A stretch of DNA of 49,870 nt from the NCBI GenBank assembly GCA_021413905.1, contig JAIOPO010000003.1, positions 1 to 49,870 of the forward strand. Reading direction: 5' to 3'. Origin of the DNA: Candidatus Nomurabacteria bacterium. Lineage in GTDB: Bacteria > Patescibacteriota > Minisyncoccia > Phycocordibacterales > UBA9973. The notes beneath the pieces were generated by a model. That model was not told the DNA's origin, made no database searches, and saw only the letters and a program-made list of their open reading frames with translations. The translations under genes and the position numbers were made by a program. Shown piece by piece: positions 3,359-49,011 of the stretch. Each line of letters starts with the position of its first letter. Position 1 is the first letter of the stretch.

Positions 3359-3432
3359 TGTTTTTATAAAAAAAATTATTAATAAATTAACAATAAATAT
3401 TCTATTAAATAAAATTAGGATAAAAAAATAAA

Positions 3433-5400: not shown

Positions 5401-5404
5401 AAAA

Positions 5405-6565
5405 ATGTTTAAAGATAGTCCAAAATTAAAAAACATATTCTTGATTGGATTTTTATTGTCTTTTCATCTTGCTCTTTTAGCATATATAAATTCAAGCTTC
5501 TTGTCTTCATTTATCAGTGAGAAAATGGTTGGCTTGGCTTATGCTTCAGGTTCCCTTGTTTCAATTATAGCTTTGCTCATTGCACCACACATATTCAATA
5601 GAGTCGGTGGACAAAAATTTTTAATCTATATCTCAGGGCTCAGTGCTTTGTCTTTATTGTGTTTAGCTTTTGCAAAAAGTGCATACACAGCAATACCTGT
5701 ATTCATAATTTATTTTGCAATAAACACAATGATATTCTTTTCAATAGATGAACTTTTGAAAATATTTTCAAGTAATTCTTCAACCGGAAAAATTCGTGGT
5801 CTTTATATGGCATTTGTAAATCTGGCTTGGATTATAACTCAGATATTTTCAGGCAGTATAATTGAAAATTATAAATTTAAAGAAATATATCTTATTGCTT
5901 TTAGTATAATGATATTATTTTTTATTGCATCATTATTTGGATTAAAAAATATTCAAAATCCTCCATCTGATAAAAAAAATATAATTCAATCAGTAAAAGA
6001 ATTTTTAAAAATAAAAGAAATATTTCGAATATACAAAATAAATCTTTTATTACAATTATTTTATTGTTGGATGGTGATATATACTCCGATTTATTTGTAT
6101 CATCATTTGAATTTTGAATGGAAAGAAATGGGTATAATATTTGCAATAATGCTACTACCTTTTTCTATCATCCCATATCAAATAGGAAAATATGCGGATA
6201 AAATCGGTGAAAGAAAAATGCTAATATTTGGTTTCTTTGTAATTTCATTATCGACTATTTCCCTATTCTTTATTCACCTTCATAGTATTTACATATGGGC
6301 TTTTATGCTTTTTATGACTCGTGTAGGTGCTTCAATAGCAGAAACAATGACCGATGTTTATTTCTTTAAACATATAAAAACTGAACAAGAAGAATTCGTA
6401 AGTGTGTTTCGAAGCGCCACCCCTGTGGCCTATATCATCGGTCCGATAATTGCATTTATGGTATTTGAAATCACACCAGCTTTTAAATTCATATACCTTA
6501 TTTTAGGAATAATAATGCTTTACGGCATTTATTTATCTTCAAAAATAAACAAAAAAGACATTTAA
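5405..6565 (+). CDS. MFS transporter
   Basis: 386 aa, about 12 hydrophobic segments, two-halves organisation with a central loop (NPPSDKKNIIQSVKEF). Confidence 0.65.
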   Translation: MFKDSPKLKNIFLIGFLLSFHLALLAYINSSFLSSFISEKMVGLAYASGSLVSIIALLIAPHIFNRVGGQKFLIYISGLSALSLLCLAFAKSAYTAIPVFIIYFAINTMIFFSIDELLKIFSSNSSTGKIRGLYMAFVNLAWIITQIFSGSIIENYKFKEIYLIAFSIMILFFIASLFGLKNIQNPPSDKKNIIQSVKEFLKIKEIFRIYKINLLLQLFYCWMVIYTPIYLYHHLNFEWKEMGIIFAIMLLPFSIIPYQIGKYADKIGERKMLIFGFFVISLSTISLFFIHLHSIYIWAFMLFMTRVGASIAETMTDVYFFKHIKTEQEEFVSVFRSATPVAYIIGPIIAFMVFEITPAFKFIYLILGIIMLYGIYLSSKINKKDI

Positions 6566-10558: not shown

Positions 10559-11110
10559 TTAATTGGTCTTTTTTTGTTTAATATGAACAACCAAACATAA
10601 TACAAGCAAAGAAAAAAATACAGTCAATGCAAGCATTGGAATGGATATATACCCTCCAAATTCTGATACTAATTGTTGATAACATGACACACCTGAAGCA
10701 TCACAAGGGAGAGAAGAAGCTGACTCGCTAAAATAATACTCAAAATTATGATATACAGAAATTAAAAATCCTGCACATAATAATGGCAATGTGTAACGAA
10801 CAACTTTTTTATCTTTATCCCAAAAAGCCACTCCAAAAATAAATAACATTGGAAAAATGAAAATTCTCTGCCACCAACATAAATAACAAGGCAAAAAATT
10901 AATGATTTCAGAATATACCAAAGGAAAAACTGAAGCGCATAAAGAAATAAAAAAACCAATAGCTAAAAAATGTTTCTCAACATAATCCAAAAATATATTT
11001 TTCTTTGATCCAAAAAACAATATCAACAGAATTACAACTGAAAAAATCTGCAACAGTATTGCCCCAATTCCTAAAAAAATATTCAAATAATGGACTGTTT
11101 CAAAATTCAT
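10559..11110 (-). CDS. disulfide bond formation protein B family (DsbB/BdbC-like)
   Basis: Four TM segments, CYLCWWQRIFIFP (CxxC in the first loop) and a second Cys pair (LPCDASGVSC). Confidence 0.75.
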   Translation of the reverse strand: MNFETVHYLNIFLGIGAILLQIFSVVILLILFFGSKKNIFLDYVEKHFLAIGFFISLCASVFPLVYSEIINFLPCYLCWWQRIFIFPMLFIFGVAFWDKDKKVVRYTLPLLCAGFLISVYHNFEYYFSESASSLPCDASGVSCYQQLVSEFGGYISIPMLALTVFFSLLVLCLVVHIKQKKTN

Positions 11111-11116
11111 ATTATT

Positions 11117-11500
11117 TTATTCCGGTAAAACACAGCTGGTCTTCTCAGCCAATGTTTTCATCGGGACTTCCCCTGTCAAACGAGTTCCGTCTTTGAATTC
11201 CCATGTTGGATAACTTTCTATTTTCTTATCAATACAAATTTGTTTTTGACTTTTTGCATCAGGATTTGAACATTCAATATAATTCAATAATTTAACAGCA
11301 GGACCGAATTCAGCTTTTTGCGCTTTACAATGAGGACACCAAAATGCTCCGTAAAATACAGCTCCTTGATCTTTCAAACAAGTGGCAAAAGTGTCATATT
11401 TACTAACTTTTGGTTTACTTGAATTAGCAACAACAAAACTAATAATAGCGCCTAAAATCAAAATAACGATAATTCCAAAAAATATTGTTTGTTTTTTCAT
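11117..11500 (-). CDS. membrane-anchored thioredoxin-fold protein (DsbA/VKOR-partner-like)
   Basis: N-terminal TM segment, then FYGAFWCPHCKAQKAEF (WCPHC active site). Confidence 0.75.
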   Translation of the reverse strand: MKKQTIFFGIIVILILGAIISFVVANSSKPKVSKYDTFATCLKDQGAVFYGAFWCPHCKAQKAEFGPAVKLLNYIECSNPDAKSQKQICIDKKIESYPTWEFKDGTRLTGEVPMKTLAEKTSCVLPE

Positions 11501-12816: not shown

Positions 12817-12887
12817 TGGGAGATCGTCTAACGGTAGGACACCTCCCTCTGGAGGAGGTTATCTTGGTTCGAGTCCAAGTCTCCCAG
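12817..12887 (+). tRNA. tRNA-Gln (anticodon CUG)
   Basis: Hand-folded cloverleaf: acceptor TGGGAGA/TCTCCCA (U1-A72), D stem GTCT/GGAC, anticodon arm CCTCC-CTCTGGA-GGAGG, T arm CTTGG-TTCGAGT-CCAAG. CCA is not encoded. Confidence 0.9.
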
Positions 12888-21237: not shown

Positions 21238-22413
21238 ATGAAAAAATTCTTAAATAATAAAATCGTAACAATAACGAGCTTTGCATTAGTGCTCGGTTTT
21301 GCAGGATTGATCACAGTTTTAGCGGCCACAAATCCATCACTAGGAATGTCCAATTCATTTGGCATACTTTCCAGCACATACACAAATATATCAGCAGGCA
21401 CAGTAAATGGAGATGTAGGATACACTACCCCACCTGTAACACCAACAACTGTCACAGGATTAATACATGTAGCAGATATTACTTATAATCAAGCTGGTTT
21501 AGATCAAAACAGTTCTTTAGTAGACTTAAACAGTCAACCTTGTGATTTTAATTTTGGTTCCGCGACAGATCTTAGTCTAGAATCACAACCATTAATCCCA
21601 GGAGTTTATTGTGTCACAGGAGCTCAATCCATAGGTACTGGAGGAATAACTCTTAACGGATCCGGAACTTATATATTCAGATCTACAGGAGCTCTTACTA
21701 CAGTAACAGGTTCGTCTGTCACACTAGCCGGTGGCGCATCAGCATGTGATGTCTTTTGGACACCAATACAAGCGACAACTCTAGCTGCAAATACAGATTT
21801 CACAGGAACAGTAATAGATGCAGCAGGTATTACTGTAGGAAGCACTGTCACATGGCTTGGAAGAGCTTTAGCATTCGGAGGTACTGTAACCACAAACACA
21901 GACACAATAACAGTACCGACTTGCACAGTACCAGCACCAGCAACTCTTCATGTTATTAAAACAGTAGTCAACCATAACAGCACAGGAGTTTCTTCTGATT
22001 TTAATTTATATGTTAAACTTTCTGGAGTAAATATAGCAGGAAGTCCACTAGCTGGAGCTGTCACCCCAGGAAATACTTATACAATATCAGCTGGTACATA
22101 TGTAGTAAGCGAAGATTTAAATACAGCTTATTCATCAAGCTTCAGTGGAGATTGTAATTCAAATGGAACCATAATTTTATCTGCTAGTGATGATAAGACT
22201 TGTACAATAACAAACACATACATAGTACCAACAGTTAACAGTGGTGGGAGAAATGGAGGTGGAGGAGGTTTCTTATTAACTCAACAACAAGCGCCAACAC
22301 AACAACAAATAATTACACCAATCTCAAATACAACAACGACATCTTCTCCTGTTATATTTCCAATACCTCCTAAATTTCCAAACACAGGATTTGCCCCTAG
22401 AAATATATTTTAA
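21238..22413 (+). CDS. secreted DUF3494 (ice-binding-like beta-helix) protein with C-terminal beta-sandwich domain and PNTG tail
   Basis: Signal/anchor peptide. DUF3494 blocks LGMSNSFGILSSTYTN, GTVNGDVGY, PGVYC, TLNGSGTYIFRSTGALTT, ACDVFW, GRALAFGGTVT. Then an LHVIKTVVNHN...CTITNTY domain, a Gly run, and the C-terminal FPNTGFAPRNIF. Confidence 0.75.
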   Translation: MKKFLNNKIVTITSFALVLGFAGLITVLAATNPSLGMSNSFGILSSTYTNISAGTVNGDVGYTTPPVTPTTVTGLIHVADITYNQAGLDQNSSLVDLNSQPCDFNFGSATDLSLESQPLIPGVYCVTGAQSIGTGGITLNGSGTYIFRSTGALTTVTGSSVTLAGGASACDVFWTPIQATTLAANTDFTGTVIDAAGITVGSTVTWLGRALAFGGTVTTNTDTITVPTCTVPAPATLHVIKTVVNHNSTGVSSDFNLYVKLSGVNIAGSPLAGAVTPGNTYTISAGTYVVSEDLNTAYSSSFSGDCNSNGTIILSASDDKTCTITNTYIVPTVNSGGRNGGGGGFLLTQQQAPTQQQIITPISNTTTTSSPVIFPIPPKFPNTGFAPRNIF

Positions 22414-22431
22414 TTTTTACAAATTAAAATT

Positions 22432-23046
22432 ATGAAAAAAAAATCTATCCATTTTAAAAAACGGATTATTTTGACTTCTGTTTTACTTATATTTTTTGTT
22501 CTAATTATTTATTTATTTTTTTATGGTCAGAAAGTTGAATCAAAAAAAATAAATTCTAAAAACAATACGAGTATAAATATCACAGAAAATAAAACATCGA
22601 GCATACCAATAAATATCAAAATACCGAAAATAAATGTGAATACTAATATAGAATCAGTTGGAATTCTATCAGATGGAGCTATGGGTGTTCCCAACTCACC
22701 TGAAAATACAGCTTGGTTTAATTTAGGGGTAATACCCGGAGATATAGGCAGTGCTGTGATTGATGGTCATTCAGGATGGAAAGACAATATCCCCGCTATA
22801 TTTGATGATCTATATAAACTTAAAAAAGGAGACAAGATATATATAACAAACGATAAAGGTATCGTAAATACTTTTGTTGTTACAAAAACAAAAATTTATA
22901 AATCAAATGAAGACACAACTAGTGTATTTATTCCAAACGACAAAATATCACATCTCAATTTGATTACGTGCACTGGTATTTGGAATTCCGTAGAAAAAAG
23001 TCACACGGACAGGCTTGTGATATTTAGCGATAAAGAAATTCTATAA
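22432..23046 (+). CDS. sortase (class F/E-like)
   Basis: N-terminal TM segment, VIDGHSG (catalytic His), LNLITCTG (TLxTC Cys) and HTDRLVIF (Arg). Confidence 0.8.
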   Translation: MKKKSIHFKKRIILTSVLLIFFVLIIYLFFYGQKVESKKINSKNNTSINITENKTSSIPINIKIPKINVNTNIESVGILSDGAMGVPNSPENTAWFNLGVIPGDIGSAVIDGHSGWKDNIPAIFDDLYKLKKGDKIYITNDKGIVNTFVVTKTKIYKSNEDTTSVFIPNDKISHLNLITCTGIWNSVEKSHTDRLVIFSDKEIL

Positions 23047-24993
23047 AATAAACTTAAAGAATCTAAATACAGCAAAACCTAAACCAGAAATTACTGCTCC
23101 GAGAGCTATCGGAGTCGGTATTTTGGTTTTAGTATTTTTTACAGAAGCAGACAAAACAGAATCATTTATTTCTTTTTTTACTTCTGAAATATCTTTTTTA
23201 TTTACAACATCCACATTATTAATATTTTGATCATTAATATTAAATTTATTTATTACATCTTCTTTAACAAGATTATCTGAGATTATTTCTTTTTTTACTT
23301 CTGATACAATTACCGGTTCTATAATAATTTCTTTTTTATCTTCTGTTGCTATTGTTTTTATTTGCTCATTATTTTCAACTGATCCACCCCCAGACACAGA
23401 TAAAGGCTTGGAAACATATTGCATTATATTATTCCAAGATTTACCCAATACAGCCGATATAGCATAACTAGTAATCCAAATTCTATTCTGAATATTTTCA
23501 TTTGTTGATATTGCTCCCCCATCTGTTGCTTGCTGAAAACTCAAATAATCCAAACCAGTATGTCCATTTTTAGACCAAGACAAACCAACAGAATTCATAG
23601 CTTGCAAAACCCAACTCGTACTTGATACATTACCCCAACCTCCATCTGGATTTTGTAAATTGGATAAATAATTTTCTGCTTTTAAAAGCGCATTATTTAC
23701 ACCATCGATAGAATTAAAATTATTCAAAGCCATAATTCCGGCTGAAGTTAAATCTATACTATTTTCGAAAGACCCATCAGGGTTTTGTTTTAAAAGAAGA
23801 AAAGAAATATCTTTTTGTATAATTTCATCATTTGATGTATATCCGGAATTTGCCAAAGGAATTAAAGCAAAAATATCATCGTTTAATAAATTACTGTCAC
23901 CAAATTGAGTGCCGTCAAAACTATTAACAATATTATTTATATAATCCACACCATTAAAATTATAAGGATTTTTATTTAAAGACAATAAGGTTATCGCTCT
24001 TCGTTCATTGTCAGTCAAAATAGAACTTAAAGAATTATTTATATTTAAAAAAGAAAGTATTGAATTTATTGCATCATCATTTATATTATTCGCAGACAAA
24101 GCTATTGCAGACCAATCAGTATACATATTGCCACCAAAAGATCCGTCTGGATTTTGCTTACTCTTTAAAAAAGAAATTGCATTTGTTAAATTAAAAACAT
24201 TTGATATTAATGGTCCCCCACCCCCACCACCTGAAATCACAGGATCTGGCTTTTGTTTTACTAATAAATTATAAGAAGGAAAATAATAATCTTCTACTAT
24301 CCCAAGTGTATAAGAATCTGAATTTTCAATAATTATATTTGCAAGACCCTGATCATCTACTAGATTCGAAGATATTACTGTTGGATTCCATGCATCATCA
24401 GGATTTGGCACAGTCACGCCGACAGAAATTCCAGTCAATGGATTCCAAATATTATTTTCATAATCATATTTTTCTGCTTTTACAAAAACACTATCTCCGA
24501 CATTCATTTCATTTTTATCCAACACTAAATGGTGAGGTGTACCAAAATAAATACCGACAGTTTCTCCACCTGTGAGCAAAACATTCTCTATGCTTTCCCA
24601 TGGAGTTGTATTTCCAACTGCATATTGCCAATTGTCACAATTTTCTACCCTATCCACAGAAGAAATACATTTTAAATAAAAAGAACCAAAAGAATCATAA
24701 TATTGTAAATTTGAAACAGAAAATGAATCATTGGAAATATCTATCATTGATAAAAGACCTAACACACTTCTGGAACTCACATTATGAGGATTACCTAAAT
24801 TATCATTGATTTGCAAAATACTCTCATCGGGCAATGGTACGGAGCCTTGCCAGATAACACTGTCTCCATTACGGATAATAAAAGTTTCATTTGGAATTTC
24901 CGGAGGAACAGGTATTTCATCATCAGCTAAAACAATATTAAAATTAAAAAATAAAACAAATAAAATAACAAAAACAAATAAAAACTTTTTCAT
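23041..24993 (-). CDS. surface protein: DUF4430 domain + Ig-like domain + prenyltransferase/terpene-cyclase-like alpha/alpha toroid repeats + C-terminal TM anchor
   Basis: Signal peptide. DUF4430-like NWQYAVGNTTPW...GETVGIYFG. A GGGGGG linker. Four QxxDGxF/W repeats (KQNPDGSFGG, KQNPDGSFEN, LQNPDGGWGN, QQATDGGAIS). C-terminal hydrophobic IALGAVISGLGFAVFRFF. Confidence 0.7.
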   Translation of the reverse strand: MKKFLFVFVILFVLFFNFNIVLADDEIPVPPEIPNETFIIRNGDSVIWQGSVPLPDESILQINDNLGNPHNVSSRSVLGLLSMIDISNDSFSVSNLQYYDSFGSFYLKCISSVDRVENCDNWQYAVGNTTPWESIENVLLTGGETVGIYFGTPHHLVLDKNEMNVGDSVFVKAEKYDYENNIWNPLTGISVGVTVPNPDDAWNPTVISSNLVDDQGLANIIIENSDSYTLGIVEDYYFPSYNLLVKQKPDPVISGGGGGGPLISNVFNLTNAISFLKSKQNPDGSFGGNMYTDWSAIALSANNINDDAINSILSFLNINNSLSSILTDNERRAITLLSLNKNPYNFNGVDYINNIVNSFDGTQFGDSNLLNDDIFALIPLANSGYTSNDEIIQKDISFLLLKQNPDGSFENSIDLTSAGIMALNNFNSIDGVNNALLKAENYLSNLQNPDGGWGNVSSTSWVLQAMNSVGLSWSKNGHTGLDYLSFQQATDGGAISTNENIQNRIWITSYAISAVLGKSWNNIMQYVSKPLSVSGGGSVENNEQIKTIATEDKKEIIIEPVIVSEVKKEIISDNLVKEDVINKFNINDQNINNVDVVNKKDISEVKKEINDSVLSASVKNTKTKIPTPIALGAVISGLGFAVFRFFKFIL

Positions 24994-24994
24994 A

Positions 24995-25498
24995 CTATTT
25001 CAATTTCCACTCAATAATATCACCATCTTGTGGAATATAATAAGAAACACCGACAGATGCTTCTTTGCCATTAACATAATAAAATAAATATTTCCCATTT
25101 CCACCGTGCAAATCATTTATATCAGAAACAAAAAAACCTAAATCCGGATATGATTTACCTGAAAAATTTAATTCTCCTTTTTTTTGCTCAAACATTAAAA
25201 TATCATAAAAAGAAGTATTTTTTTCTGTTTTTATTTTTATATTATAATTACCAATTATTAAATTAACAGATATTGGATTTACGAATAGGATTTCTTGTTT
25301 TTGCTTATTTTCTATATTTTTTAATTTTTCAGTTTTTTCTATTATATTTAATTTATTTTGAATATTTAATTCCGGTTTTTTTTCCAGCACTTCTATCTCT
25401 TTATTTTTATATGAATAAAAAATAATTAATAAAATAAAAATTGCAAAAACTATCGCAAAGATTATAGAAATATTTTTTTGTATTTTACTTTTTTGCAT
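24995..25498 (-). CDS. membrane-anchored DUF4430 domain protein (transcobalamin beta-domain-like)
   Basis: N-terminal TM segment. The C-terminal GFFVSDINDLHGGNGKYLFYYVNGKEASVGVSYYIPQDGDIIEWKL fits the DUF4430 pattern. Confidence 0.7.
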   Translation of the reverse strand: MQKSKIQKNISIIFAIVFAIFILLIIFYSYKNKEIEVLEKKPELNIQNKLNIIEKTEKLKNIENKQKQEILFVNPISVNLIIGNYNIKIKTEKNTSFYDILMFEQKKGELNFSGKSYPDLGFFVSDINDLHGGNGKYLFYYVNGKEASVGVSYYIPQDGDIIEWKLK

Positions 25499-25503
25499 AT
25501 AAA

Positions 25504-25529
25504 TAAAAAAACACCTTCCGAGCGGGGTG
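25504..25529 (-). terminator. riboswitch expression-platform hairpin plus U-run
   Basis: Minus-strand RNA CACCCCGCUCGGAAGGUG followed by UUUUUUU. It contains the SD-like GGAAGGUG. Its GCUCGG can alternatively pair with CCGAGC just 3' of the aptamer. Confidence 0.5.
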
Positions 25530-25575
25530 CATTATATAAAAAATATTATAAATATTTTCCTGCTCGGGACTCATA

Positions 25576-25660
25576 TTATATTTGGCAATCGGACTTTCCT
25601 TTTTACAGGATTACCGTAGCGGCACTGTGGAGGATTTACACCTCACTTCCCCAAATATAA
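25576..25660 (-). promoter_or_regulatory. cobalamin riboswitch aptamer (compact, class-II-like)
   Basis: Minus-strand RNA is closed by a perfect 10-bp P1 (UUAUAUUUGG/CCAAAUAUAA). The core GGGAAGUGAGGUGUAAAUCCUCCACAGUGCCGCUACGGUAA matches the conserved GGGAA..GGUG.AAAUCC...CCGCUAC.GUAA block. AAGUCCGAUUGCC is B12-box-like. Confidence 0.7.
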
Positions 25661-25722
25661 AATATTAAATTTTTAAATACTCACAAAATAATTATATACC
25701 TATTGAAAAAATTTGCAATAAA

Positions 25723-26280
25723 TTAATCATAACGCGGGGCTTCTTCGGAAATACCATTGATATGATTAAACATTCTAGCAAAAGCATATAAAACGCTAGA
25801 AAGACGATTTAAATAAGCCAAAGTTTCTGGGCTTATTTTAGCCAAACCTTCATCGTGAACACCCACAACACGTCTTTCAGCTCTACGTGCGATAGTGCGG
25901 GCTATATCTGAAATACTTGCAAGCTCTGTACCACCAGATACAAAAAAAGTTTTTATAGGAGGTAAAGATTTCTCTATATTGTCTATAATATATTCTAACC
26001 ATTTTACTTTTTCTAAAGTAATATTTTTTTCTGCTCCAGCTGTTTCAGCTTGAACAATAAATAAATCTTGTTGAATTCTGTCTATTGTCTCAGGCACATT
26101 TAAATTATTTTTTTCTAAAACAAAAAAAACATCGACGGATTTTATCTTTAAAAAACCTAGAAAAGAATTTATCTCATCTAAAGTACCCAAGGCTTCAGCA
26201 ATAGCAGAACTCTTTGATATACGTTGATCGCAACCAAATGTTTTTGTTGTTCCGCTATCACCTTTCCTTGTATATAACAT
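25723..26280 (-). CDS. pduO: ATP:cob(I)alamin adenosyltransferase, PduO type
   Basis: The N-terminal YTRKGDSGTTKTFG...ISKSSAIAEALGTLDEINSFLG is the canonical PduO-type signature. Confidence 0.85.
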   Translation of the reverse strand: MLYTRKGDSGTTKTFGCDQRISKSSAIAEALGTLDEINSFLGFLKIKSVDVFFVLEKNNLNVPETIDRIQQDLFIVQAETAGAEKNITLEKVKWLEYIIDNIEKSLPPIKTFFVSGGTELASISDIARTIARRAERRVVGVHDEGLAKISPETLAYLNRLSSVLYAFARMFNHINGISEEAPRYD

Positions 26281-26285
26281 AAATT

Positions 26286-28586
26286 TTATATTTCACAAAC
26301 ACCTGCAACACAAGCAAGCTCTTTTTTGACTTCTGTTTCGTCTTTTATCTCATAAGTAATAATCTTTGAAAAATCAAATTCAGGCATTTTTTTCATGAGC
26401 TCATTGTAAGTCTTTTCATCAATAGTTTCATAAGGAGCGAGCTGGTAAATATGATTACTTCTAGGCAAGAAAGAAAGACCTCCGACAATATCCCAATTTT
26501 GATACAACCAATGTGCTACTTGAATCCATTCATTTTCACCAACAGAAATAGTAACAGAAGGATTGTGTTCAGTATAATTTACTTTTACAGTTTTCCAATG
26601 TTCAAGTTGATCAATCGCAGAAATATCATCTTTACATATTGCACCTTTAGGAGCTTTTACAGGAAAATCCAAAACAAAAGTAGTAGCATTTTCCATTGTT
26701 TGTCCAACTTCAGGATGATAAGGTACACCTTGATCTTTTAACATTCTAAACAAAGCATCGTTAGCGGAAACTCTTACACGGCGAACATAAAATGGAGCAT
26801 GACGAGGATGCATACCAGAAGAACAATCTACAGTCTGAGAAGCATTTCCGGAAGGTTTAACGCAAGTTATACAAGTTGATTCATTGATACCGAATTTTTT
26901 TGCAAAAATTTTATTTACACGAATAGATTCATGTCTTAATTTTTCAAGCATTTTTGGATCACGCACTAATTTTGAATCCCATTGTCCTGTAATAGAAACA
27001 CCGAGCAATCTTTCTGCTACACAATTATCTTTCCATTCTTTTGAAAGATATCCGAATTTTGTTAAAGTAGATTGATATGTACCCAAAATGGTAGCAATGC
27101 GCATTTTTTTCATCAAAGTATCTTCGGTATCCTCTGCTCTAGCTACTATCTCTGAAAGATTACAAAATTGTTTTGAGCGAAGAATAATTTCCCCACAAGG
27201 ATTTGTTCCCATTGAACCGATAAATTGACCAGAAGCTTCTATACGACGCTTAGGCAAAGAAGTATACAATGAACCACGATTAAATATGCCACGTTCACCA
27301 GAACCTGATTCCATCAAAGCAATCCATTCTTTCAAAAACTCTGTTTCTGTTGGTTTTGTTTCATAAACAGCAGAATTATTTGCCAACATTCTTTGAGCTT
27401 CAGAATTCCAAAATTGACCATTTTTAGAATCACGAATTTCTTGATCATCTAAATCAGAAAGAGAAATCAAAGCACTGCGACGCACTCCACCAGACACGAC
27501 ACATTCACCTATTTTGCAAATAATATCATGCGCATCGATATTTCTAAGATGTCTACCTTGTCTGCGCAAGATTCTTTCACGAGTAAAAGTTATTAAATCA
27601 ATCAAAGGTTGTGGACCAGAACTTTTTCCTCCCATTATTTTCAATCTAGCTCCAGCAGGACGAAGTTTAGAATAATCAAAATCAACATCATGACCTTCAA
27701 ACCATGTTTTCATACCATGAACAAATGCATCGGCCCAACCTTCTTTTGAATCAGGCACAACAAAAGTTGCAAGTTTTTTTCCTGTTTGTGGTTTGATTTG
27801 TGGCAATGCTTGAATATTTTTACTTTCAACAGAAAAACCAACACCAGTACCACACATTGAAATATAAATAATTTCTCCAAAATCTTGAAAGGAAGAAGGT
27901 GCAATAAAAGAACAATTATAAGCACAGACATTTGTCTTATCAGCAGCAATACCAGCAAATTGCATCAATCGCATAGAAGGTAAAGCTTCTTGTTTTAAAA
28001 TTGCTTCACGCACTTCAGCATATTCTGAATCTTTTAAACTATTACCAAGATTAACTTTCATGAAATCCATATATCTGTCGATAGTCTCAATCCAAGTTTC
28101 TCTTCTACCTTCTTCTGCAATCCATTTTGCATAAGTTCTATAATAAACAAATTCAGATAAAGCGTTACGAAAATATTTTTTACTTTCAGCAAAACGATTT
28201 TGTATCTGCTCAGGAACAAGGCCTAATTTCTTACGAGCTTCATTTCTTTCATGACGATATAAAATATAAGATTTAGCTGTTTGAGGGAAAGACAAGGCGA
28301 TTAAAACTTGTTCTACAATGTCCTGAATTTTTTCAACTGAAAACTTGTATTCTTTACTTTCTCCTTTTTTATACAAAACCAAAGCCTGATAAACTTTACT
28401 AGCTACTTTTTTAGCTTCTTTTTCACCACCCTCTTTTACAGAATCCATTGCTCTAAAAATAGCCCTTTCAACTCTAGCAAGATCAAAAGAAACAACAGAA
28501 CCGTCTCTTTTAATAATTGTTTTCAAAGAATCTGATGGAGTTTTTTTTGAAGCTTTATTAATTTTTGATTTTGTATTTTTTTTCAT
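26286..28586 (-). CDS. nrdJ: adenosylcobalamin-dependent (class II) ribonucleotide reductase with N-terminal ATP-cone
   Basis: ATP-cone IIKRDGSVVSFDLARVERAIFRAM, thiyl-radical loop GTNPCGEI, C-terminal redox pair CVAGVCEI. 766 aa. Confidence 0.85.
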   Translation of the reverse strand: MKKNTKSKINKASKKTPSDSLKTIIKRDGSVVSFDLARVERAIFRAMDSVKEGGEKEAKKVASKVYQALVLYKKGESKEYKFSVEKIQDIVEQVLIALSFPQTAKSYILYRHERNEARKKLGLVPEQIQNRFAESKKYFRNALSEFVYYRTYAKWIAEEGRRETWIETIDRYMDFMKVNLGNSLKDSEYAEVREAILKQEALPSMRLMQFAGIAADKTNVCAYNCSFIAPSSFQDFGEIIYISMCGTGVGFSVESKNIQALPQIKPQTGKKLATFVVPDSKEGWADAFVHGMKTWFEGHDVDFDYSKLRPAGARLKIMGGKSSGPQPLIDLITFTRERILRRQGRHLRNIDAHDIICKIGECVVSGGVRRSALISLSDLDDQEIRDSKNGQFWNSEAQRMLANNSAVYETKPTETEFLKEWIALMESGSGERGIFNRGSLYTSLPKRRIEASGQFIGSMGTNPCGEIILRSKQFCNLSEIVARAEDTEDTLMKKMRIATILGTYQSTLTKFGYLSKEWKDNCVAERLLGVSITGQWDSKLVRDPKMLEKLRHESIRVNKIFAKKFGINESTCITCVKPSGNASQTVDCSSGMHPRHAPFYVRRVRVSANDALFRMLKDQGVPYHPEVGQTMENATTFVLDFPVKAPKGAICKDDISAIDQLEHWKTVKVNYTEHNPSVTISVGENEWIQVAHWLYQNWDIVGGLSFLPRSNHIYQLAPYETIDEKTYNELMKKMPEFDFSKIITYEIKDETEVKKELACVAGVCEI

Positions 28587-28588
28587 AT

Positions 28589-29131
28589 TTATGCTATTTT
28601 ATTGAATAATTTATTAAATGTTTTTTGTTCTAAATAAGTATTTTGTGTAATATATTTATGAATCAAGGGGCTAATGGTTAATGCCATGGTAATATTACCG
28701 ATTAGATGCATGGCCGAAAACGGAATTTGTCCAATTAAAGCATTCATGAAACTTTGATTAAAAAATAATGGTCCAATAGTCAAACCTGTGACTGCGTCAT
28801 ATGCCAATGTTCCCATAACTGCAAAATAAGCGTAATTCAAAGCTTTTGGAGCACGATTCTTGAAAAAAAACATTGCCCAAATACCCAAAAATCCATAAGC
28901 TATCGCTGTAATGAATGTCCACATGCCAATACCAGAAGTCACAGAATCATAAACCACAATACTCATAAAACCAAAAAAGAAAGTACTAAAATATCCAAAA
29001 ACATTAGAGAAAGGCATTTGAACAGCTAAAAGAGGTTCAATATTTGGAGGTCTAAAAGGAATTAATCTAAGTAAAAAACAAGCAATGAATGCTGTAAAAT
29101 ATTTCAAAAAATTTTGCTCATTTTTTATCAT
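28589..29131 (-). CDS. small polytopic membrane protein, DUF6580-like / ECF-S-component-like putative vitamin transporter
   Basis: 180 aa, about 6 TM segments. The N-terminal LLRLIPFRPPNIEPLLAVQMPF resembles the RLxPxxPNFxPxxA block I associate with DUF6580. First gene of the cobalamin cluster. Confidence 0.35.
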   Translation of the reverse strand: MIKNEQNFLKYFTAFIACFLLRLIPFRPPNIEPLLAVQMPFSNVFGYFSTFFFGFMSIVVYDSVTSGIGMWTFITAIAYGFLGIWAMFFFKNRAPKALNYAYFAVMGTLAYDAVTGLTIGPLFFNQSFMNALIGQIPFSAMHLIGNITMALTISPLIHKYITQNTYLEQKTFNKLFNKIA

Positions 29132-29260: not shown

Positions 29261-30532
29261 ATGTTTTTATATATATATTTAGAAATAATCTCAGGAGTAA
29301 TAGGTTTTATAATCATTGCAATATTGATAACTTACCTTTTAAAACACTTAGTTATCCACAATACAATTAAAAAAAGTGTAGCTTATTCTCTCTTAATACT
29401 TTTTTTAATTGCTGTGATTTCAGGATTATTAGCAAATAAAACTTATCCACCGAATTTTGCAATGCCTTTATTTATGCATTCGCATACACCAGATCAATTA
29501 CCAGCATCTATTCCATTTAATAAAATTATTTACTTTTTAATAAATAAAAATAAATTTGAAAAAGTGGACAATATTTCAGCTGATGCAAATCTTGTACCAG
29601 AAAACGATCAAAAACCAGATTCTGATGGAATTGTACGCATACATCTAACAACAAAAGAAGTTATTTCTGAAATTGCACCTGGAATATATTTTAATTACTG
29701 GACTTATAATGGACAAGTACCAGGGCCAATGTTACGCATAAAAGAAGGTGAAACAATAGAATTATCTTTAACAAATGACATAACGAGTTTACACCACCAT
29801 AACATAGATCTACATGCTGTGACCGGCCCAGGAGGTGGAGCGACCCTTACAGACGTAAATCCAGGTGAAACCAAAACAATTCGTTGGAAAGCATTAAATC
29901 CTGGTTTATATATTTATCATTGCGCAATGCCAAATGTAAGTACTCATAATTCTCACGGACAATACGGTCTTATTTTAGTTGATCCTAAAGATCCCAAATT
30001 AACATTTGAAAAAGTTGATAAAGAATTTTATATTACTCAAGGAGAATTTTATACAATCGGACAAACAGGTAAAAAAGGATTAGTACCTTTTGATTCTGAC
30101 GCTTTATTGGATGGTAAACCGAATTATGTTGTATTTAATGGAAAAATAAATAACACACCCTTGCTCCATGCAAAAGTCGGAGATAAAATAAGAATTTATA
30201 TTGGTAACGGTGGAGTAAATTTAATATCTTCTTTTCATATAATTGGCGAAATATTTGATAAAGTTTATCCAGAAGGTGCAATAGGTGAAAATTCTTCCAT
30301 ATTAAAAAATGTCCAAACAACAGCAGTCTTGCCTGGAGGATCCAGTATAGTCGAATTAAAACTTGATGTACCTGGAAAATATTTAATAGTAGATCACGCA
30401 TTAGCAAGAATGAATAAGGGCGCTTGGGCAATACTTGAAGTTTCCGGACCAGAACAAAAAGATATTTTTTCTGGTTTAGACAACAAAAGCAATACTGAAA
30501 CAAACATGCATAATGATATGCATATGGAATAA
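29261..30532 (+). CDS. nirK: copper-containing nitrite reductase (NirK-type two-domain cupredoxin) with N-terminal double-TM anchor
   Basis: HHHNIDLHAVTGPGGGA (T1 His, catalytic Asp, T2 His), YIYHCAMPNVSTHNSHGQYGLILV (T2 His, T1 Cys, T1 His), FHIIGEIFD (catalytic His) and VDHALARMNKGA (T2 His from the neighbouring subunit). Confidence 0.8.
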   Translation: MFLYIYLEIISGVIGFIIIAILITYLLKHLVIHNTIKKSVAYSLLILFLIAVISGLLANKTYPPNFAMPLFMHSHTPDQLPASIPFNKIIYFLINKNKFEKVDNISADANLVPENDQKPDSDGIVRIHLTTKEVISEIAPGIYFNYWTYNGQVPGPMLRIKEGETIELSLTNDITSLHHHNIDLHAVTGPGGGATLTDVNPGETKTIRWKALNPGLYIYHCAMPNVSTHNSHGQYGLILVDPKDPKLTFEKVDKEFYITQGEFYTIGQTGKKGLVPFDSDALLDGKPNYVVFNGKINNTPLLHAKVGDKIRIYIGNGGVNLISSFHIIGEIFDKVYPEGAIGENSSILKNVQTTAVLPGGSSIVELKLDVPGKYLIVDHALARMNKGAWAILEVSGPEQKDIFSGLDNKSNTETNMHNDMHME

Positions 30533-36280: not shown

Positions 36281-36352
36281 AGCCGTTGGTGAGGATTGAA
36301 CTCACGCTCTCCCCATTACCAATGGAGTGCTTTACCACTAAGCTACAACGGC
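36281..36352 (-). tRNA. tRNA-Thr (anticodon GGU)
   Basis: Hand-folded: acceptor GCCGTTG/CAACGGC, D arm GCTT-AGTGGTA-AAGC, anticodon arm CTCCA-TTGGTAA-TGGGG, T arm GTGAG-TTCAATC-CTCAC. Confidence 0.9.
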
Positions 36353-36361
36353 CTTAAATTA

Positions 36362-37393
36362 TTATTCTTTCTTTTTTATCATTGAATATATTTCAAATAA
36401 AACAAAAAGTAAAGATAAAATCAATGGTCCTAATAAAAACCCGATAGCTCCAAAGAAACTAATACCGCCTAAAACAGAAAGAAGTATTAAAACAGGATGT
36501 ATCATTATACCTCTTTCTATTAACTTTGGTTTCAACAAATTATCAATAAATCCGACAATTGTAATACCCCAAATTGCAAAACCAATAAAATGCAACAAAT
36601 TTGAATTTAGAAAAAGATAAATAGCAGCAGGTACAATAATAAGACCTGTACCAGCCCAAGGCATAAGAGCGGTAAAAGTAGTCACTGTACCCCACAAAAC
36701 AGCATTTGGAATTCCAAAAATAAAAAAACCTAATGAGGTCAAAGCACCCTGAAGTATTGCGATCAATAAAGTCCCTTTTACAACAGAATTTATTGCAATA
36801 CTCATTTTTTTGAAAATTAATTGATTATATTCTTCATCTAAAGGACTTAATCTGATTATATTTTTCTTTAATTCTTCTCCATCTTTAAATAAATAATAAA
36901 GAGCTATAAAAAATACTATACAACCTCCTGTGATAGCTATTGCATTTGAAAAAATAAAACCGAGATTATTTACCAACCAATTCAAACCGGATTTTAAATA
37001 TTGATTTATGTTTAAAGAAAAATCAACTTGTGTGGGTAAAAAATTATTTAAGCCATTTAATTGATTTGTGACTAATGCAGATAAATTATCAAAACCGCCA
37101 TTATTCAACATAGAAGAATATAAACTCGTGGATTCTTTAAAGATTTGAGTCGTCAATAAAATCAATGGGACCAAAAAGACAACAACAACCAAAATGGTTG
37201 TACTAATAGCCGAAAGACCTTTATTTTGTTTTGTAACTTTTAAAATTATTTTATAAATTGGATAAAAAATAGTAGCAAATACCACAGCAAGAATTGAGGC
37301 ATACAAAAATGGTTTAAATATAAAAAAAGTAAGAACCAAAGCAAATGCGATAAATCCAAATAAAAAATAAGTTTGTGATTTAAATTGTTTCAT
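36362..37393 (-). CDS. AI-2E family transporter (PerM/UPF0118)
   Basis: 343 aa, about 8 TM segments. The central soluble insert and the C-terminal GLIIVPAAIYLF...GFIDNLLKP block are typical of the family. Confidence 0.7.
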   Translation of the reverse strand: MKQFKSQTYFLFGFIAFALVLTFFIFKPFLYASILAVVFATIFYPIYKIILKVTKQNKGLSAISTTILVVVVFLVPLILLTTQIFKESTSLYSSMLNNGGFDNLSALVTNQLNGLNNFLPTQVDFSLNINQYLKSGLNWLVNNLGFIFSNAIAITGGCIVFFIALYYLFKDGEELKKNIIRLSPLDEEYNQLIFKKMSIAINSVVKGTLLIAILQGALTSLGFFIFGIPNAVLWGTVTTFTALMPWAGTGLIIVPAAIYLFLNSNLLHFIGFAIWGITIVGFIDNLLKPKLIERGIMIHPVLILLSVLGGISFFGAIGFLLGPLILSLLFVLFEIYSMIKKKE

Positions 37394-37420
37394 ATATGTC
37401 CACTATAGCAAATATATGCC

Positions 37421-37450
37421 AAAAATAAAAGCCGGGAATAAATCCCCGGC
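37421..37450 (-). terminator. intrinsic terminator after the 37470-37829 gene
   Basis: Minus-strand GCCGGG-GAUUUAUU-CCCGGC followed by UUUUAUUUUU. Confidence 0.7.
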
Positions 37451-37469
37451 CAATAAAATACTTTTTTAT

Positions 37470-37829
37470 TTACAAACTTTCTATTGCCTTTTTTACAACG
37501 GGCGTCACCTCTTCCCAACCCAGATTGCTTTTTTTTATTAAAACAAAATGGAAAACTGATGTTGTGCGTATTTCCTGAGCACAACCTGTTTCAAAAATTT
37601 TATTTAAAAAAGTTTTAACAGATTCAGATGCATCGATAGTATGCATTTCTGGCATATCTAATACATCGCTTCCATCAAAAACATACGGTGCTAAAATCTC
37701 ACCATTAAATGGAATTTTAGCTCGAAAACGAACCGGACTGTCCTTGAATAAAGGTTTTGAAGAAAAAAAAGACTTCAAGTCTTTTTGATTAATTCTTTCA
37801 ATTAATTGCATATGCTGATGAGTTTCCAT
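37470..37829 (-). CDS. hypothetical protein
   Basis: 119-aa ORF followed by its own terminator. No recognisable motif. Confidence 0.45.
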   Translation of the reverse strand: METHQHMQLIERINQKDLKSFFSSKPLFKDSPVRFRAKIPFNGEILAPYVFDGSDVLDMPEMHTIDASESVKTFLNKIFETGCAQEIRTTSVFHFVLIKKSNLGWEEVTPVVKKAIESL

Positions 37830-37960
37830 AAAAAGAACAAATTTTTAATTAATTTATAGATTTTGCACACGCCATTCATCGTATCTATAAAACGACATAA
37901 ACCTCTAGGGTTTAGACTATAGATTATTATATTTTAACAAAAAGTCAAATTTTTTCAGGG

Positions 37961-38034
37961 CGCGAACGACGGGATTTGAACCCGCAACCTCCCGCGTGAC
38001 AGGCGGGTGCTCTAACCAATTGAGCTACGTCCGC
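37961..38034 (-). tRNA. tRNA-Asp (anticodon GUC)
   Basis: Acceptor GCGGACG/CGTTCGC, D arm GCTC-AATTGGTTA-GAGC, anticodon arm CCCGC-CTGTCAC-GCGGG, T arm GCGGG-TTCAAAT-CCCGT. Confidence 0.9.
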
Positions 38035-38071
38035 AAATTAAATTTGCGAAATAATTTCCTCATATTGAGGG

Positions 38072-38145
38072 TGTCGATGGCAGGATTTGCACCTGCGACC
38101 TTCTCTTTATGAGTGAGATGCTCTAACTACCTGAGCTACATCGAC
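38072..38145 (-). tRNA. tRNA with CAU anticodon, elongator type (Met or lysidine-modified Ile2)
   Basis: Acceptor GTCGATG/CATCGAC (G1-C72 paired), D arm GCTC-AGGTAGTTA-GAGC, anticodon loop CTCATAA, T arm GCAGG-TGCAAAT-CCTGC. Confidence 0.8.
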
Positions 38146-38192
38146 AAATAAATCTTCAACAATGACACGAAGGCATGTCACTTGCCGAATTG

Positions 38193-38263
38193 TTGCGGGA
38201 CCACGAATCGAACGTGGGTCTCAAGGTTATGAGCCTTGCGAGATGCCTCTTCTCTATCCCGCT
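38193..38263 (-). tRNA. tRNA with CAU anticodon, initiator-like
   Basis: Unpaired 1:72 position (A/A), A11:U24 in the D stem (GAGA/TCTC), anticodon arm CAAGG-CTCATAA-CCTTG with G30-C40 and G31-C39, T arm CCACG-TTCGATT-CGTGG. Confidence 0.75.
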
Positions 38264-45307: not shown

Positions 45308-45421
<114 letters not shown>

Positions 45422-45803
45422 AAAACTTGATTTCACCCGCCTTTAGCGGGTTTGGTTTTTTGCGCCTCTTCGGCGCATCCGCTGTTGAGGCGGGTTTGTG
45501 ATTTCCAAATTTCTTAACAGGAATCGAAACATTAGTACTTCTCAGCTGAACGCATTACTGCGCTTACACTTAAAGCCTATCAACGTGATCATCTCTCACG
45601 GTTCTTAACGATTCCTAATCTTAAAGCTGGCTTCCCTCTTAGATGCTTTCAGAGGTTATCCATTCCCGACATAGCTACCGAGCAGTGCCCTTGGCAGGAC
45701 AGCTCGTACACCAGAGGTCAGTTCACCCCGGTCCTCTCGTACTAGGGGCAAATCTTCTCAAGAATCAACGAGTGCAGTAGATAGGAGACCAACCTGTCTC
45801 ACG

Positions 45804-46122
45804 CATCTACGTCACACATTACTGTGTGGATTGGACTATAGCTTCATCCTGAAAAAGTTTTCACTTTTGAAGGACTGCTGACGTTTAGTCTCTACGGGTG
45901 AATTAAAAATTCTTCCCTCGGTATTGCCCTCACTTACGTGATTGGGTTCCACCGATTTTAGTCAGCTTGTTACTATATATTTCTATACAGCACCGCCGTG
46001 ATGTGTATTTTTCAACACATGGTTAATTTCGATTAAAACAGTTTAAGTTCATAATATTTTGAACTCTTAATTCCTCTGAGGATTCAGACTATCCTGAAGT
46101 TAATATAAATATTAACTGAAGG
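45804..46122 (-). ncRNA. ORF-less group I intron at 23S position equivalent to E. coli U2593 (the I-CreI-type site)
   Basis: Interrupts GGGTTCAGACCGT^CGTGAGACAGG. The 5' exon ends in U and the intron ends in G. R-like GTAGAGACTAAACG and S-like AAGCTATAGTCC core elements. P3 GCTGAC/GTCAGC. P8 with a GAAA loop and P9 with a GUAA loop. Confidence 0.7.
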
Positions 46123-46706
46123 ACGGTCTGAACCCAGCTCGCGTACCTTTTTAATTGGCGAACAGCCAAACGCTTGGCAGCTTCTCCACCGCCGCGCTAA
46201 GGTGAGCCGACATCGAGGTGCCGAACTCCGCCGTCGATATGAACTCTTGGGCGGAATGCTTGAGATGTACCTCTTACAGTCAAGCCAGCTTGTGCCTATA
46301 CACTATCGGCACGGTTTCCATTCGCGCCTAGCTGACCTTTAAACCCCTCCTTTACTCTTTAGGAGGGTACAGCCCCAGTAAAACTATCCGCCAGATACTG
46401 TCTCAATACGTTTTTGCCGTATTGGTTAGAACATGCCTTCAAAAAGAATGGTATTTCACTGTTGAGTATTACAAAGCCGAGACCTTGCACATAACCTCTC
46501 CCATCTATTCTACGCAGTCTAAAAACATGCTCAATATCAAGTTATAGTAAAGCTTCTAGGGTCTTTTCGTCTAACTGCACTTAGCCGGCATCTTCACCGG
46601 CATTGTATTTTCACCGAGCTGGTCCTCGAGACAGTTTCCCAGTCATTACACCATTCGTGCGCGTCGGAACTTACCCGACAAGGTATTTCGCTACCTTAGG
46701 ACCGTT

Positions 46707-47521
46707 CTTTTCTTAAGGTATGAATGTGTACATATTGTTTACCAAATAAAAACTTAAAACGTGTTAACTTTATGTCGCCATAAAGATCGGACTATATCAT
46801 CGTTTTCAAATCGTCGACTCCAATAATTGATTTGAAACCGTCTTGCGTTTAGTCTCTGAGGATTCTTCTACTTTATCACATCTGATAAATTGTATTTTCG
46901 TTTTCTTCCTTTTCCTTCATTTAGAGTTTCTCTTAATTGAAGTATTTTTTCAAATCCTTCTTTTTTAAGATGTTCTCCTTCTGACATAATTTCAACAATT
47001 TGTTTAAAAATTGAAAAATTTGTCTTTTTTCTTGAAGAAATAAAATTAAACTTAATAAAGAATGGAATAATTTTTTCTTTTAGTGAAGCAACATTTGTCG
47101 CTTCATAATAGACCACTCCATCTTGTCTTTCTCGTAGAGTGCCACATCCAAGGATTTTTTTAATCCAAGCAAGTATAACTCTGTCTTTTTGAGAAATATT
47201 AAACGAAGCTGTTATTTTCCATTCACCTACATAGTCATTTCTTTTTTTAAGAGAAACATTAAAGCTCCCCTCACCGTCAGTAAAACCGGCTATATAATAT
47301 CCATCTTTTGGATTAATATTTTTAAGCCATTTTTCTTCTTGATTCATTTAGAAATTGTAGTAGAAGTCTTTCCTGCTGATTGTCTGCATGATTAAATTGT
47401 CACGGCAACATCGACATGTGCTCGTATTAATCAATACTTTTTTATCCCTTGATATTATCTCGGGACCCAGAGTTTCCAGCATTTGGCAAGATTTATTTGC
47501 GTAACTACAACGGTTTTGTCT
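46707..47521 (-). mobile_element. group I intron with LAGLIDADG homing endonuclease ORF at 23S position equivalent to E. coli 1917
   Basis: Interrupts GGCCGTAACTAT^AACGGTCCTAAGG. The internal guide CCGUU-GUAGUUAC (47501-47513) pairs with the 3' exon AACGG (P10) and the 5' exon GUAACUAU (P1, with a terminal U-G wobble). R-like CAGAGACTAAACG (46846-46858), S-like GATATAGTCC (46789-46798). The intron ends in G. Confidence 0.85.
46868..47347 (-). CDS. LAGLIDADG homing endonuclease (single-motif, I-CreI-like size)
   Basis: YIAGFTDGEGSFNVSL motif. 159 aa, wholly inside the intron. Confidence 0.85.
   Translation of the reverse strand: MNQEEKWLKNINPKDGYYIAGFTDGEGSFNVSLKKRNDYVGEWKITASFNISQKDRVILAWIKKILGCGTLRERQDGVVYYEATNVASLKEKIIPFFIKFNFISSRKKTNFSIFKQIVEIMSEGEHLKKEGFEKILQLRETLNEGKGRKRKYNLSDVIK

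Positions 47522-48974: not shown

Positions 48975-49011
<37 letters not shown>

Follow-up and report, generated by a model that had tools for sequence, protein, structure and literature searches.

The window analysed here, the whole 49,870-nucleotide stretch of an AT-rich contig (49.9 kb) from Candidatus Nomurabacteria bacterium, carries at 23041–29131 on the minus strand a gene cluster that is probably a corrinoid (vitamin B12) capture-and-use or salvage system of a tiny-genome bacterium of the Candidate Phyla Radiation (CPR)/Patescibacteria, with putative corrinoid binding at the cell surface. Five co-directional genes were found, separated by gaps of 1–5 nt except for a single 224-nt spacer between genes 3 and 4, and the cluster probably consists of two transcription units. 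In order of transcription these encode a 180-amino-acid (aa) membrane protein, a ribonucleotide reductase (RNR) and a PduO-type adenosyltransferase and, after the spacer with its cobalamin riboswitch, a 167-aa DUF4430 protein and a 650-aa surface protein with an alpha/alpha toroid; the five genes and the riboswitch that an earlier, sequence-only reading had placed on this strand were all present at their positions. Named homologues of the window proteins came almost exclusively from CPR/Patescibacteria (under the labels Nomurabacteria, Paceibacterota and Falkowbacteria). The sequence-only reading had proposed corrinoid capture and use with a transcobalamin-like surface module, and every test that was run agreed with it; for the toroid the likeness to transcobalamin stands in fold and in genomic context, homology not being demonstrable. 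The riboswitch/DUF4430/toroid arrangement recurs in related loci and its RNA covaries strongly, well beyond what chance would give.

Riboswitch and recurrence of the surface-protein genes

The cobalamin riboswitch aptamer (25575–25668, minus strand; Rfam RF01689, clan CL00101) was identified with the covariance model over its full length (1–81) at 47.0 bits against a gathering score of 36.5 (E = 2.6e-8), which bears out the riboswitch claimed from the letters. Relatives of the 650-aa protein were then collected: 256 were confirmed in species-representative genomes and 80 loci were kept, which are the basis of all locus counts given below. Nearly all of these loci come from CPR/Patescibacteria metagenome-assembled genomes, and a few titles reading 'uncultured Gammaproteobacteria' were taken as mislabels. 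A cluster-level search (one representative per 50%-identity cluster) yielded 557 representatives at E <= 1e-30; among the top matches listed, most align over the N-terminal domain, the Ig domain and the toroid.

Rfam searches detected a cobalamin-clan riboswitch in seven of nine related loci tested, and a covariance model of our own was built from six of the Rfam-positive loci. With this model, by which the window RNA scores 101 bits, a riboswitch was found in 62 of the 80 loci, always on the coding strand and directly before the DUF4430 gene; six of the 18 negatives lack upstream sequence, which leaves 62 of 74 evaluable loci positive. The co-occurrence of DUF4430 and toroid genes behind cobalamin riboswitches, which had been proposed as a check on the idea, is thereby seen across genomes. 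Pairing was assessed on 62 distinct RNA sequences in an alignment fitted to the model: 94.5% of cells were paired and 21 of 30 pairs were changed on both sides, with slid alignments reaching 35–48% paired and none of 500 shuffles reaching the observed score.

Downstream of the aptamer an expression platform (25505–25568, minus strand) was delimited by reading of the sequence together with a minimum free energy fold. Its hairpin pairs CCCGAGC (25568–25562) with GCTCGG (25523–25518), the 3' arm overlapping the Shine-Dalgarno-like GGAAGGTG (25519–25512); a T7 run (25511–25505) follows, and the DUF4430 start codon lies at 25498. A promoter-like site, TTGCAA-16-TATAAT (25691–25718, minus strand), was picked up by consensus scan between the PduO stop and the riboswitch, with the promoter and terminator scans not exceeding shuffled expectation in this AT-rich DNA.

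In the window the small DUF4430 gene lies 1 nt upstream of the toroid gene, and across the 80 loci its counterpart is the immediate upstream neighbour of that gene in 74. Linkage to the RNR gene was seen in 43 loci, to the gene of the 180-aa membrane protein (an S-component, see below) in 41 and to PduO in 25, and the S-component gene adjoins the RNR gene in 41 of the 43 loci that hold the latter. Two gene orders were observed, S/RNR/(PduO)/riboswitch/DUF4430/toroid and RNR/S/riboswitch/DUF4430/toroid; about half of the loci carry the riboswitch/DUF4430/toroid unit with neither RNR nor S-component nearby. At 1565–6565 (plus strand) the window has genes for an SBP_bac_5 solute-binding protein, RNase J and a major facilitator superfamily (MFS) transporter in a row, and the same families occur upstream of the riboswitch/DUF4430/toroid unit in 12–14 related loci without RNR genes; this recurrence points to conserved genome order rather than to function.

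Architecture of the two surface proteins

The 650-aa surface protein (23041–24993, minus strand) was annotated from its sequence and from a full-length AlphaFold2 (AF2) model, for which a 33-sequence alignment was used. It begins with a signal peptide (aa 1–23, ending ...NIVLA/DD; 24925–24993), predicted from sequence features, followed by an N-terminal divergent DUF4430/SLBB-like domain (aa 33–156; 24526–24897), an Ig-like beta-sandwich spacer (aa 157–250; 24244–24525), all-beta in the model at a pLDDT of about 90 with the sandwich spanning residues 157–246, and a flexible Gly6 linker (aa 255–260; 24214–24231) in a segment of pLDDT below 50 (residues 251–263). The alpha6/alpha6 toroid, a putative corrinoid-binding barrel (aa 264–530; 23404–24204), carries Q-x-x-D-G repeats at residues 280, 403, 447 and 488 and is succeeded by a disordered low-complexity stalk (aa 533–624; 23122–23397; pLDDT below 50) and a C-terminal transmembrane (TM) anchor (aa 627–649; 23047–23115), predicted as a helix of hydrophobic sequence. 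Ig-like domain, Gly linker, the four QxxDG repeats, toroid and C-terminal TM segment, all of them named in the sequence-only reading, are thus present, and homologues have Bact_surface_Ig-like or SpaA domains.

When the full-length model was submitted to Foldseek, the matches were alpha2-macroglobulin and complement proteins at TM-scores below 0.3 and root mean square deviations above 19 A; these matches arise from the combination of Ig domain and toroid and are uninformative, and the toroid was therefore re-modelled alone (pLDDT 96.5, pTM 0.92, 12 main helices). Foldseek comparison of this model with the PDB placed drimenyl diphosphate synthase at the top (1e-6, TMq 0.67), with a single-domain squalene-hopene cyclase (SHC) at TMq 0.74, followed by transcobalamin, haptocorrin and intrinsic factor (3e-5 to 1e-3, TMq 0.55–0.68). 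By sequence, a toroid profile matched squalene-hopene cyclase in the PDB at 8e-16 and transcobalamin at 0.47. Sequence profiles of the toroid or of the full protein were discarded as evidence for transcobalamin, their PDB reach being terpene cyclases and the transcobalamin values (E = 0.47–1.9) not significant. Among 33 homologues, 22 match PF01122 (Cobalamin_bind) weakly, the best at 9e-7, and the identity of the toroid to transcobalamin is 12–15%. As modelled, the toroid is of the fold class of the transcobalamin alpha domain and is not assignable to transcobalamin over the cyclase family; the proposed structural comparison with transcobalamin and intrinsic factor gave the expected matches, which cyclases equalled or surpassed. 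Invariant polar and aromatic residues cluster on one face of the toroid, at the N-termini of the inner helices (D293/W294, T327/E330/R331, D372/D373, D414, W461 and W506/Y510).

The N-terminal domain was modelled at pLDDT 84–94 with a beta-grasp-like strand order around a helix at residues 77–87. In the equivalent region seven of 33 homologues match DUF4430 in Pfam (best E = 2e-5), and, with a lenient cut-off, a hidden Markov model of CPR DUF4430 proteins matches 49 of 120 homologues. When the domain was aligned to the small DUF4430 family with hhalign, E was 0.013 over 70 in-register columns at a reported probability of only 3.3%, the Ig domain and the toroid giving 0.59 and 0.29 as controls. 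These comparisons lend weak support to a divergent DUF4430 copy in this position, and for the DUF4430 domain that the sequence-only reading had assigned to the 650-aa protein the support lies at the level of the family.

The 167-aa protein (24995–25498, minus strand), a membrane-anchored DUF4430 protein (a transcobalamin beta-domain-like SLBB domain), has an N-terminal TM helix at about aa 10–29 and a DUF4430 domain at aa 98–167 (nt 24998–25207; PF14478, E = 1.1e-10), in agreement with the TM-anchored DUF4430 protein described earlier. A phmmer search of the PDB with the single sequence gave nothing useful; the profile of the small DUF4430 family found only intrinsic factor (0.012 and 0.013) and transcobalamin (0.15) there, every match falling in the beta domain; this is the kinship set out by Burroughs et al. 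2007, and it agrees with the view of DUF4430 as the homologue of that domain.

Cys109 and Cys119 of the 650-aa protein (24637–24669) form an invariant pair in the N-terminal domain, which suggests a disulfide; together with the predicted signal peptide and TM anchors the pair would fit an exported protein. A CxxC thioredoxin-like membrane protein is encoded after the toroid gene in 27 of the 80 loci and a DsbB-like protein in 23 (e.g. L025, L044 and L070); the DsbB-like and thioredoxin genes of the window lie 12 kb from the toroid gene (10559–11500). Longer relatives of 800–1057 aa (P0002, P0057, P0062, P0063, P0085, P0097 and P0118) have two tandem DUF4430-like domains before the toroid, and other homologues add DUF5011/Bact_surface_Ig-like domains. 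Convergent to the toroid gene, the plus strand at 21238–23046 encodes an ice-binding-like/SpaA-like surface protein (391 aa) with the C-terminal sequence ...KFPNTGFAPRNIF and then a 204-aa sortase, whose gene shares 6 nt of its 3' end with the 3' end of the toroid gene. FPNTG in the 391-aa protein is a candidate sortase signal, although the hydrophobic tail that normally goes with such a signal is missing.

Use operon, proposed mechanism and alternatives

The use operon starts with the 180-aa polytopic protein (28589–29131, minus strand), which is described here as a CbrT-like energy-coupling factor (ECF) S-component and putative corrinoid translocator. Its own Pfam match to ECF-ribofla_trS (E = 1.7e-3, 18.8 bits) falls short of the 26.7-bit cut-off, and DUF6580 was not matched by the protein itself; in its CPR-wide family (26 members) Pfam gave ECF-ribofla_trS in 25, ECF_trnsprt in seven and DUF6580 in six. 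Of the DUF6580-like/ECF-S-like character claimed from the sequence, the S-component side therefore stands for the family, with the window protein itself below threshold. A phmmer search of the PDB with the single protein gave nothing useful and the family profile was needed: its sole match at E <= 10 was 6fnp_A (CbrT of ECF-CbrT; E = 0.014, 136 of 180 residues), with a common R-x5-P-N-(I/V)-(E/Q)-P motif and an aligned TM1 cysteine. Several other S-components have solved structures, none of which matched the profile at that threshold. The TM1 cysteine, C18 of the window protein (29078–29080), is nearly invariant in the family and aligns with the CbrT cysteine (6fnp_A residue 22). BtuM reportedly uses a Cys as axial cobalt ligand, by analogy with which C18 is a candidate cobalt ligand.

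The second gene (26286–28586, minus strand) encodes a class II, adenosylcobalamin (AdoCbl)-dependent, RTPR-like RNR of 766 aa with an N-terminal ATP-cone (Pfam, 9e-21), RNR_Alpha, an RNR barrel and the B12-binding RNR-II insertion domain (Pfam matches include PF02867 and PF21995). It matches TIGR02505 (RTPR) at E = 7e-82 and 275.6 bits, under the 340-bit equivalog cut-off, and its nearest solved structure is the monomeric RTPR of Lactobacillus leichmannii (1l1l, E = 2.4e-49); the class II assignment made earlier was confirmed. The third gene (25723–26280, minus strand) encodes a PduO-type ATP:cob(I)alamin adenosyltransferase of 185 aa (PF01923, 5.7e-44), as had been claimed, its TIGR00636 score of 151.1 bits lying over the cut-off of 108.45. 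Divergent from the S-component gene, the plus strand encodes at 29261–30532 a protein of multicopper-oxidase type, possibly NirK-like, that is membrane-anchored and has two cupredoxin domains, and a gene of this type keeps the divergent position in nine related loci (L003, L008, L014, L020, L021, L030, L031, L032 and L057).

Genes for B12 synthesis (cob/cbi), BtuCDF and the ECF A and T subunits were searched with Pfam in essentially all open reading frames (ORFs) of at least 110 aa in the window and none was found, as the sequence-only reading had noted; the only ATP-binding cassette (ABC) ATPase in the window is FtsE, beside FtsX. A crude Walker-A/LSGGQ scan gave no ECF candidate, the scan being insensitive enough to miss the window's own FtsE. 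The description of the cluster as a 'self-contained' B12 economy was overstated: in E. coli, CbrT depends on an ECF module (PMC5997447), and none is visible here. As the failure of solitary CbrT in E. coli would lead one to expect, the default expectation by analogy is an ECF module encoded elsewhere in the genome.

From these observations we infer the following course of events. In the first transcription unit, which has no riboswitch, the S-component would carry corrinoid across the membrane, PduO would convert it to AdoCbl and the RTPR-type RNR would use the AdoCbl, the S-component being energised by the ECF module expected elsewhere. In the second, corrinoid scarcity would leave the riboswitch unliganded and allow the two surface proteins to be made, and expression would be switched off when corrinoid is sufficient. 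The 650-aa protein would be exported and anchored by its C-terminal helix, and its stalk, about 90 residues long, would carry it out through the envelope; by virtue of Gly hinge and Ig spacer the N-terminal SLBB domain could close over the toroid face that bears the invariant residues, and the corrinoid would be clamped between toroid and SLBB domain like a ligand between the transcobalamin alpha and beta domains. The 167-aa protein, held close to the membrane by its N-terminal anchor and a short linker, is a plausible relay of corrinoid to the S-component. A bolder form of this proposal has a small chance of being right in full: a two-tier tethered receptor (an outer SLBB/Ig/toroid protein on a stalk and an inner small SLBB protein) would pass B12 straight to a CbrT-like S-component working alone, no ECF motor being dedicated or linked to it, in Paceibacteria-type CPR, DNA synthesis in a whole radiation would hinge on B12 from neighbour or host, and the family might be a sister or the source of animal transcobalamin, intrinsic factor and haptocorrin.

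Several observations weigh against corrinoid capture and use as set out above. As a match for the toroid, transcobalamin is equalled or surpassed by class II terpene cyclases, in sequence and in fold; the window protein has neither a PF01122 match at E <= 1 nor a Pfam match to an N-terminal DUF4430; and the match of the S-component family to CbrT is weak at E = 0.014. The window is without ECF A or T genes, and when the ORFs of the 80 loci were clustered and one representative sequence was read for each of nine neighbour families that recur in 8 or more of the 80 loci, neither an ABC ATPase nor EcfT was among them; solitary CbrT failed to support growth in E. coli (PMC5997447). Twelve evaluable loci have no detectable riboswitch (L008, L014, L018, L020, L021, L025, L031, L032, L057, L058, L075 and L077); in most of these the RNR (or PduO) gene runs on without a spacer into the DUF4430/toroid pair, as if the pair had been fused into a constitutive operon. 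The literature searched holds neither binding data nor a biochemical test for any bacterial member, and in Lactobacillus sakei an ECF operon with a split pair of this kind has been tied to heme uptake (bioRxiv 10.1101/864751).

The L. sakei proposal, made for Lsa1839/Lsa1840, is the ground for an alternative in which the surface pair binds another tetrapyrrole (heme) or a broad range of them rather than corrinoids specifically; the 12–15% identity between toroid and transcobalamin, too low for B12 contacts to be mapped residue by residue, leaves room for it. We consider it improbable, since a cobalamin riboswitch controls the pair in most evaluable loci, the genes of NrdJ, PduO and a CbrT-like protein are linked to it, and hemin does not feature among the ECF-CbrT substrates in the competition-experiment passage of PMC5997447. 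Another explanation, which places the 650-aa protein among the enzymes of the terpene-cyclase/prenyltransferase superfamily, acting on a surface isoprenoid and with an indirect link to B12, draws on the best matches by sequence (squalene-hopene cyclase) and by fold (drimenyl diphosphate synthase and single-domain cyclases), on the NCBI name of homologues ('terpene cyclase/mutase family protein') and on an Asp, aligned with SHC D376, that is invariant among homologues. It is highly improbable against the following: the general-acid motif DxDD is absent from the 650-aa protein, the segment aligned to SHC D374–D377 reading S-x-D-L, and any D-x-D-D occurs in the toroids of only seven of 107 homologues; the toroid has no Cys at all and no conserved His, so that the Zn site of a prenyltransferase beta subunit, with its Asp, Cys and His ligands, is missing; and CGEQ, the motif of the alpha2-macroglobulin/complement thioester domain, is absent from the window protein and from all 107 homologues checked. 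With these three kinds of motif lacking, the toroid is unlikely to be an enzyme, and the intact prenyltransferase or cyclase site that would have spoken against a binding barrel was not found. Export and membrane tethering, as predicted for the protein, would moreover keep it apart from the isoprenoid diphosphates of the cytoplasm; DUF4430 domains occur both within it and in its partner, and its gene stands under a cobalamin riboswitch.

The third alternative accepts corrinoid binding and assigns the module a main role other than import, namely B12 sequestration from competitors or a host cell, a surface store or a B12-regulated adhesin to a corrinoid-producing host. CPR bacteria are commonly episymbionts, a large protein on a long stalk with an Ig domain is adhesin-like, no energising transporter module is linked, and about half of the loci have the unit with no RNR or S-component near it. 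The likelihood of this alternative is nevertheless slender: shutting expression off with B12 is what one expects of an uptake system, 41 loci link the pair to a CbrT-like S-component, and transcobalamin, intrinsic factor and the predicted bacterial versions serve delivery (PMC1796856). Corrinoid capture for use by the RNR thus remains our preferred reading, and the cluster points to B12-dependent DNA synthesis in many CPR bacteria. If the ectodomains bind corrinoids, this would be direct evidence for the 2007 prediction of bacterial transcobalamin-like B12 receptors, for which the searched literature contains no biochemical test; and if the reading is true, a large part of the CPR radiation, with the module beside an AdoCbl-dependent RNR in 43 of 80 loci, would depend on scavenged B12, and vitamin dependence would become a concrete, testable part of CPR symbiosis. 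The domains are small, modular and modelled at high confidence, which makes them easy expression targets and the family a well-conserved test case for bacterial transcobalamin-like receptors.

Elsewhere in the window, the 23S rRNA gene (45513–49506, minus strand) measures 3994 nt against a 2925-nt model. Within it lie a group I intron (RF00028 at 67.7 bits) and, apart from this, an insert with the coding sequence of a 159-aa LAGLIDADG endonuclease; the coordinates recorded along with the gene are 45812–46010 and 46868–47347. The 5S rRNA gene (45311–45417) comes after the 23S gene, and no 16S gene was found in the remaining 364 nt upstream. Genes for tRNAs are found on the minus strand at 36281–38263 (four, three of them clustered at 37961–38263) and on the plus strand at 12817–12887 (one).

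Comparison with known systems

Bacterial surface proteins that combine SLBB (DUF4430) and alpha/alpha-toroid domains, and that have a paralogous SLBB operon partner, were predicted to be B12 scavengers by Burroughs, Balaji, Iyer and Aravind in 2007 (PMC1796856), with SLBB fused on either side of the toroid, signal peptides, surface anchoring and Ig-domain fusions, in hosts without B12 synthesis. A transcobalamin-clade SLBB fused to a toroid in an exported protein was found here as well, the SLBB part weak but in register. Shared with those proteins are the order with SLBB N-terminal to the toroid (the 'Bacillus-type' order), the signal peptide, the surface location, the Ig-fold fusion and the second extracellular SLBB protein as operon partner. 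The earlier proteins belong to Firmicutes, are held by an LPXTG wall anchor and have a linked CbiO-like ATPase and CbiQ-like membrane protein, whereas the present ones belong to CPR/Patescibacteria, have TM helices and show no such linked genes in the window or in the inspected recurrent families; peculiar to the present cluster are also a cobalamin riboswitch of its own that stands before the capture pair only and the link to NrdJ and PduO.

For Lactobacillus delbrueckii, a B12 auxotroph, Santos et al. 2018 (PMC5997447) describe an nrdJ-cbrS-cbrT-pduO cluster and an ECF-CbrT transporter (PDB 6FNP) that imports cobalamin and cobinamide. The two clusters agree in placing a small S-component beside an RTPR-type NrdJ and PduO, and they differ in gene order and in the shared ECF module, which CbrT requires and which is not visible here, the similarity to CbrT being weak. 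The Lactobacillus sakei ECF operon lsa1836–1840 encodes a split pair, the transcobalamin beta-like Lsa1839 and the alpha-like Lsa1840, for which heme has been argued (bioRxiv 10.1101/864751). Adjacent exported DUF4430-type and toroid proteins beside an ECF S-component are common to both systems; in L. sakei, in contrast, the operon includes the ECF A and T genes, neither an SLBB nor an Ig domain is fused to the toroid protein and the argued ligand is heme, while the context here is set by a cobalamin riboswitch and B12 enzymes.

The eukaryotic binders transcobalamin, intrinsic factor and haptocorrin (PF01122 plus PF14478; 2BB5, 2PMV and 4KKI) are likewise composed of an alpha6/alpha6 barrel and an SLBB beta domain. 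Relative to them the beta domain is N-terminal here, which reverses the order, or resides on a separate protein; an Ig spacer has been added; each barrel is accompanied by two domains of beta type; the chains are tethered to the membrane instead of soluble; and the window barrel has no significant match to PF01122 by sequence. The solitary S-component-like B12 transporter BtuM and the Bacteroides surface binders BtuG and BtuH occupy the same functional niche, surface capture of scarce corrinoid with high affinity and its handover to a transporter in the membrane. BtuM gave no sequence match to the S-component family at E <= 10, and the folds of BtuG and BtuH are unrelated, these two acting together with BtuB, which is TonB-dependent.

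Literature searches (DUF4430; CPR with cobalamin; CPR with ECF transporters) returned no description of the CPR module. The window cluster combines elements that are each on record (PMC1796856, PMC5997447 and bioRxiv 10.1101/864751), and in kind it was known already, such bacterial transcobalamin-like proteins having been predicted in 2007; new are the large, lineage-specific CPR family, its membrane anchoring and the absence of a linked ECF module, which set it apart from the systems described before.

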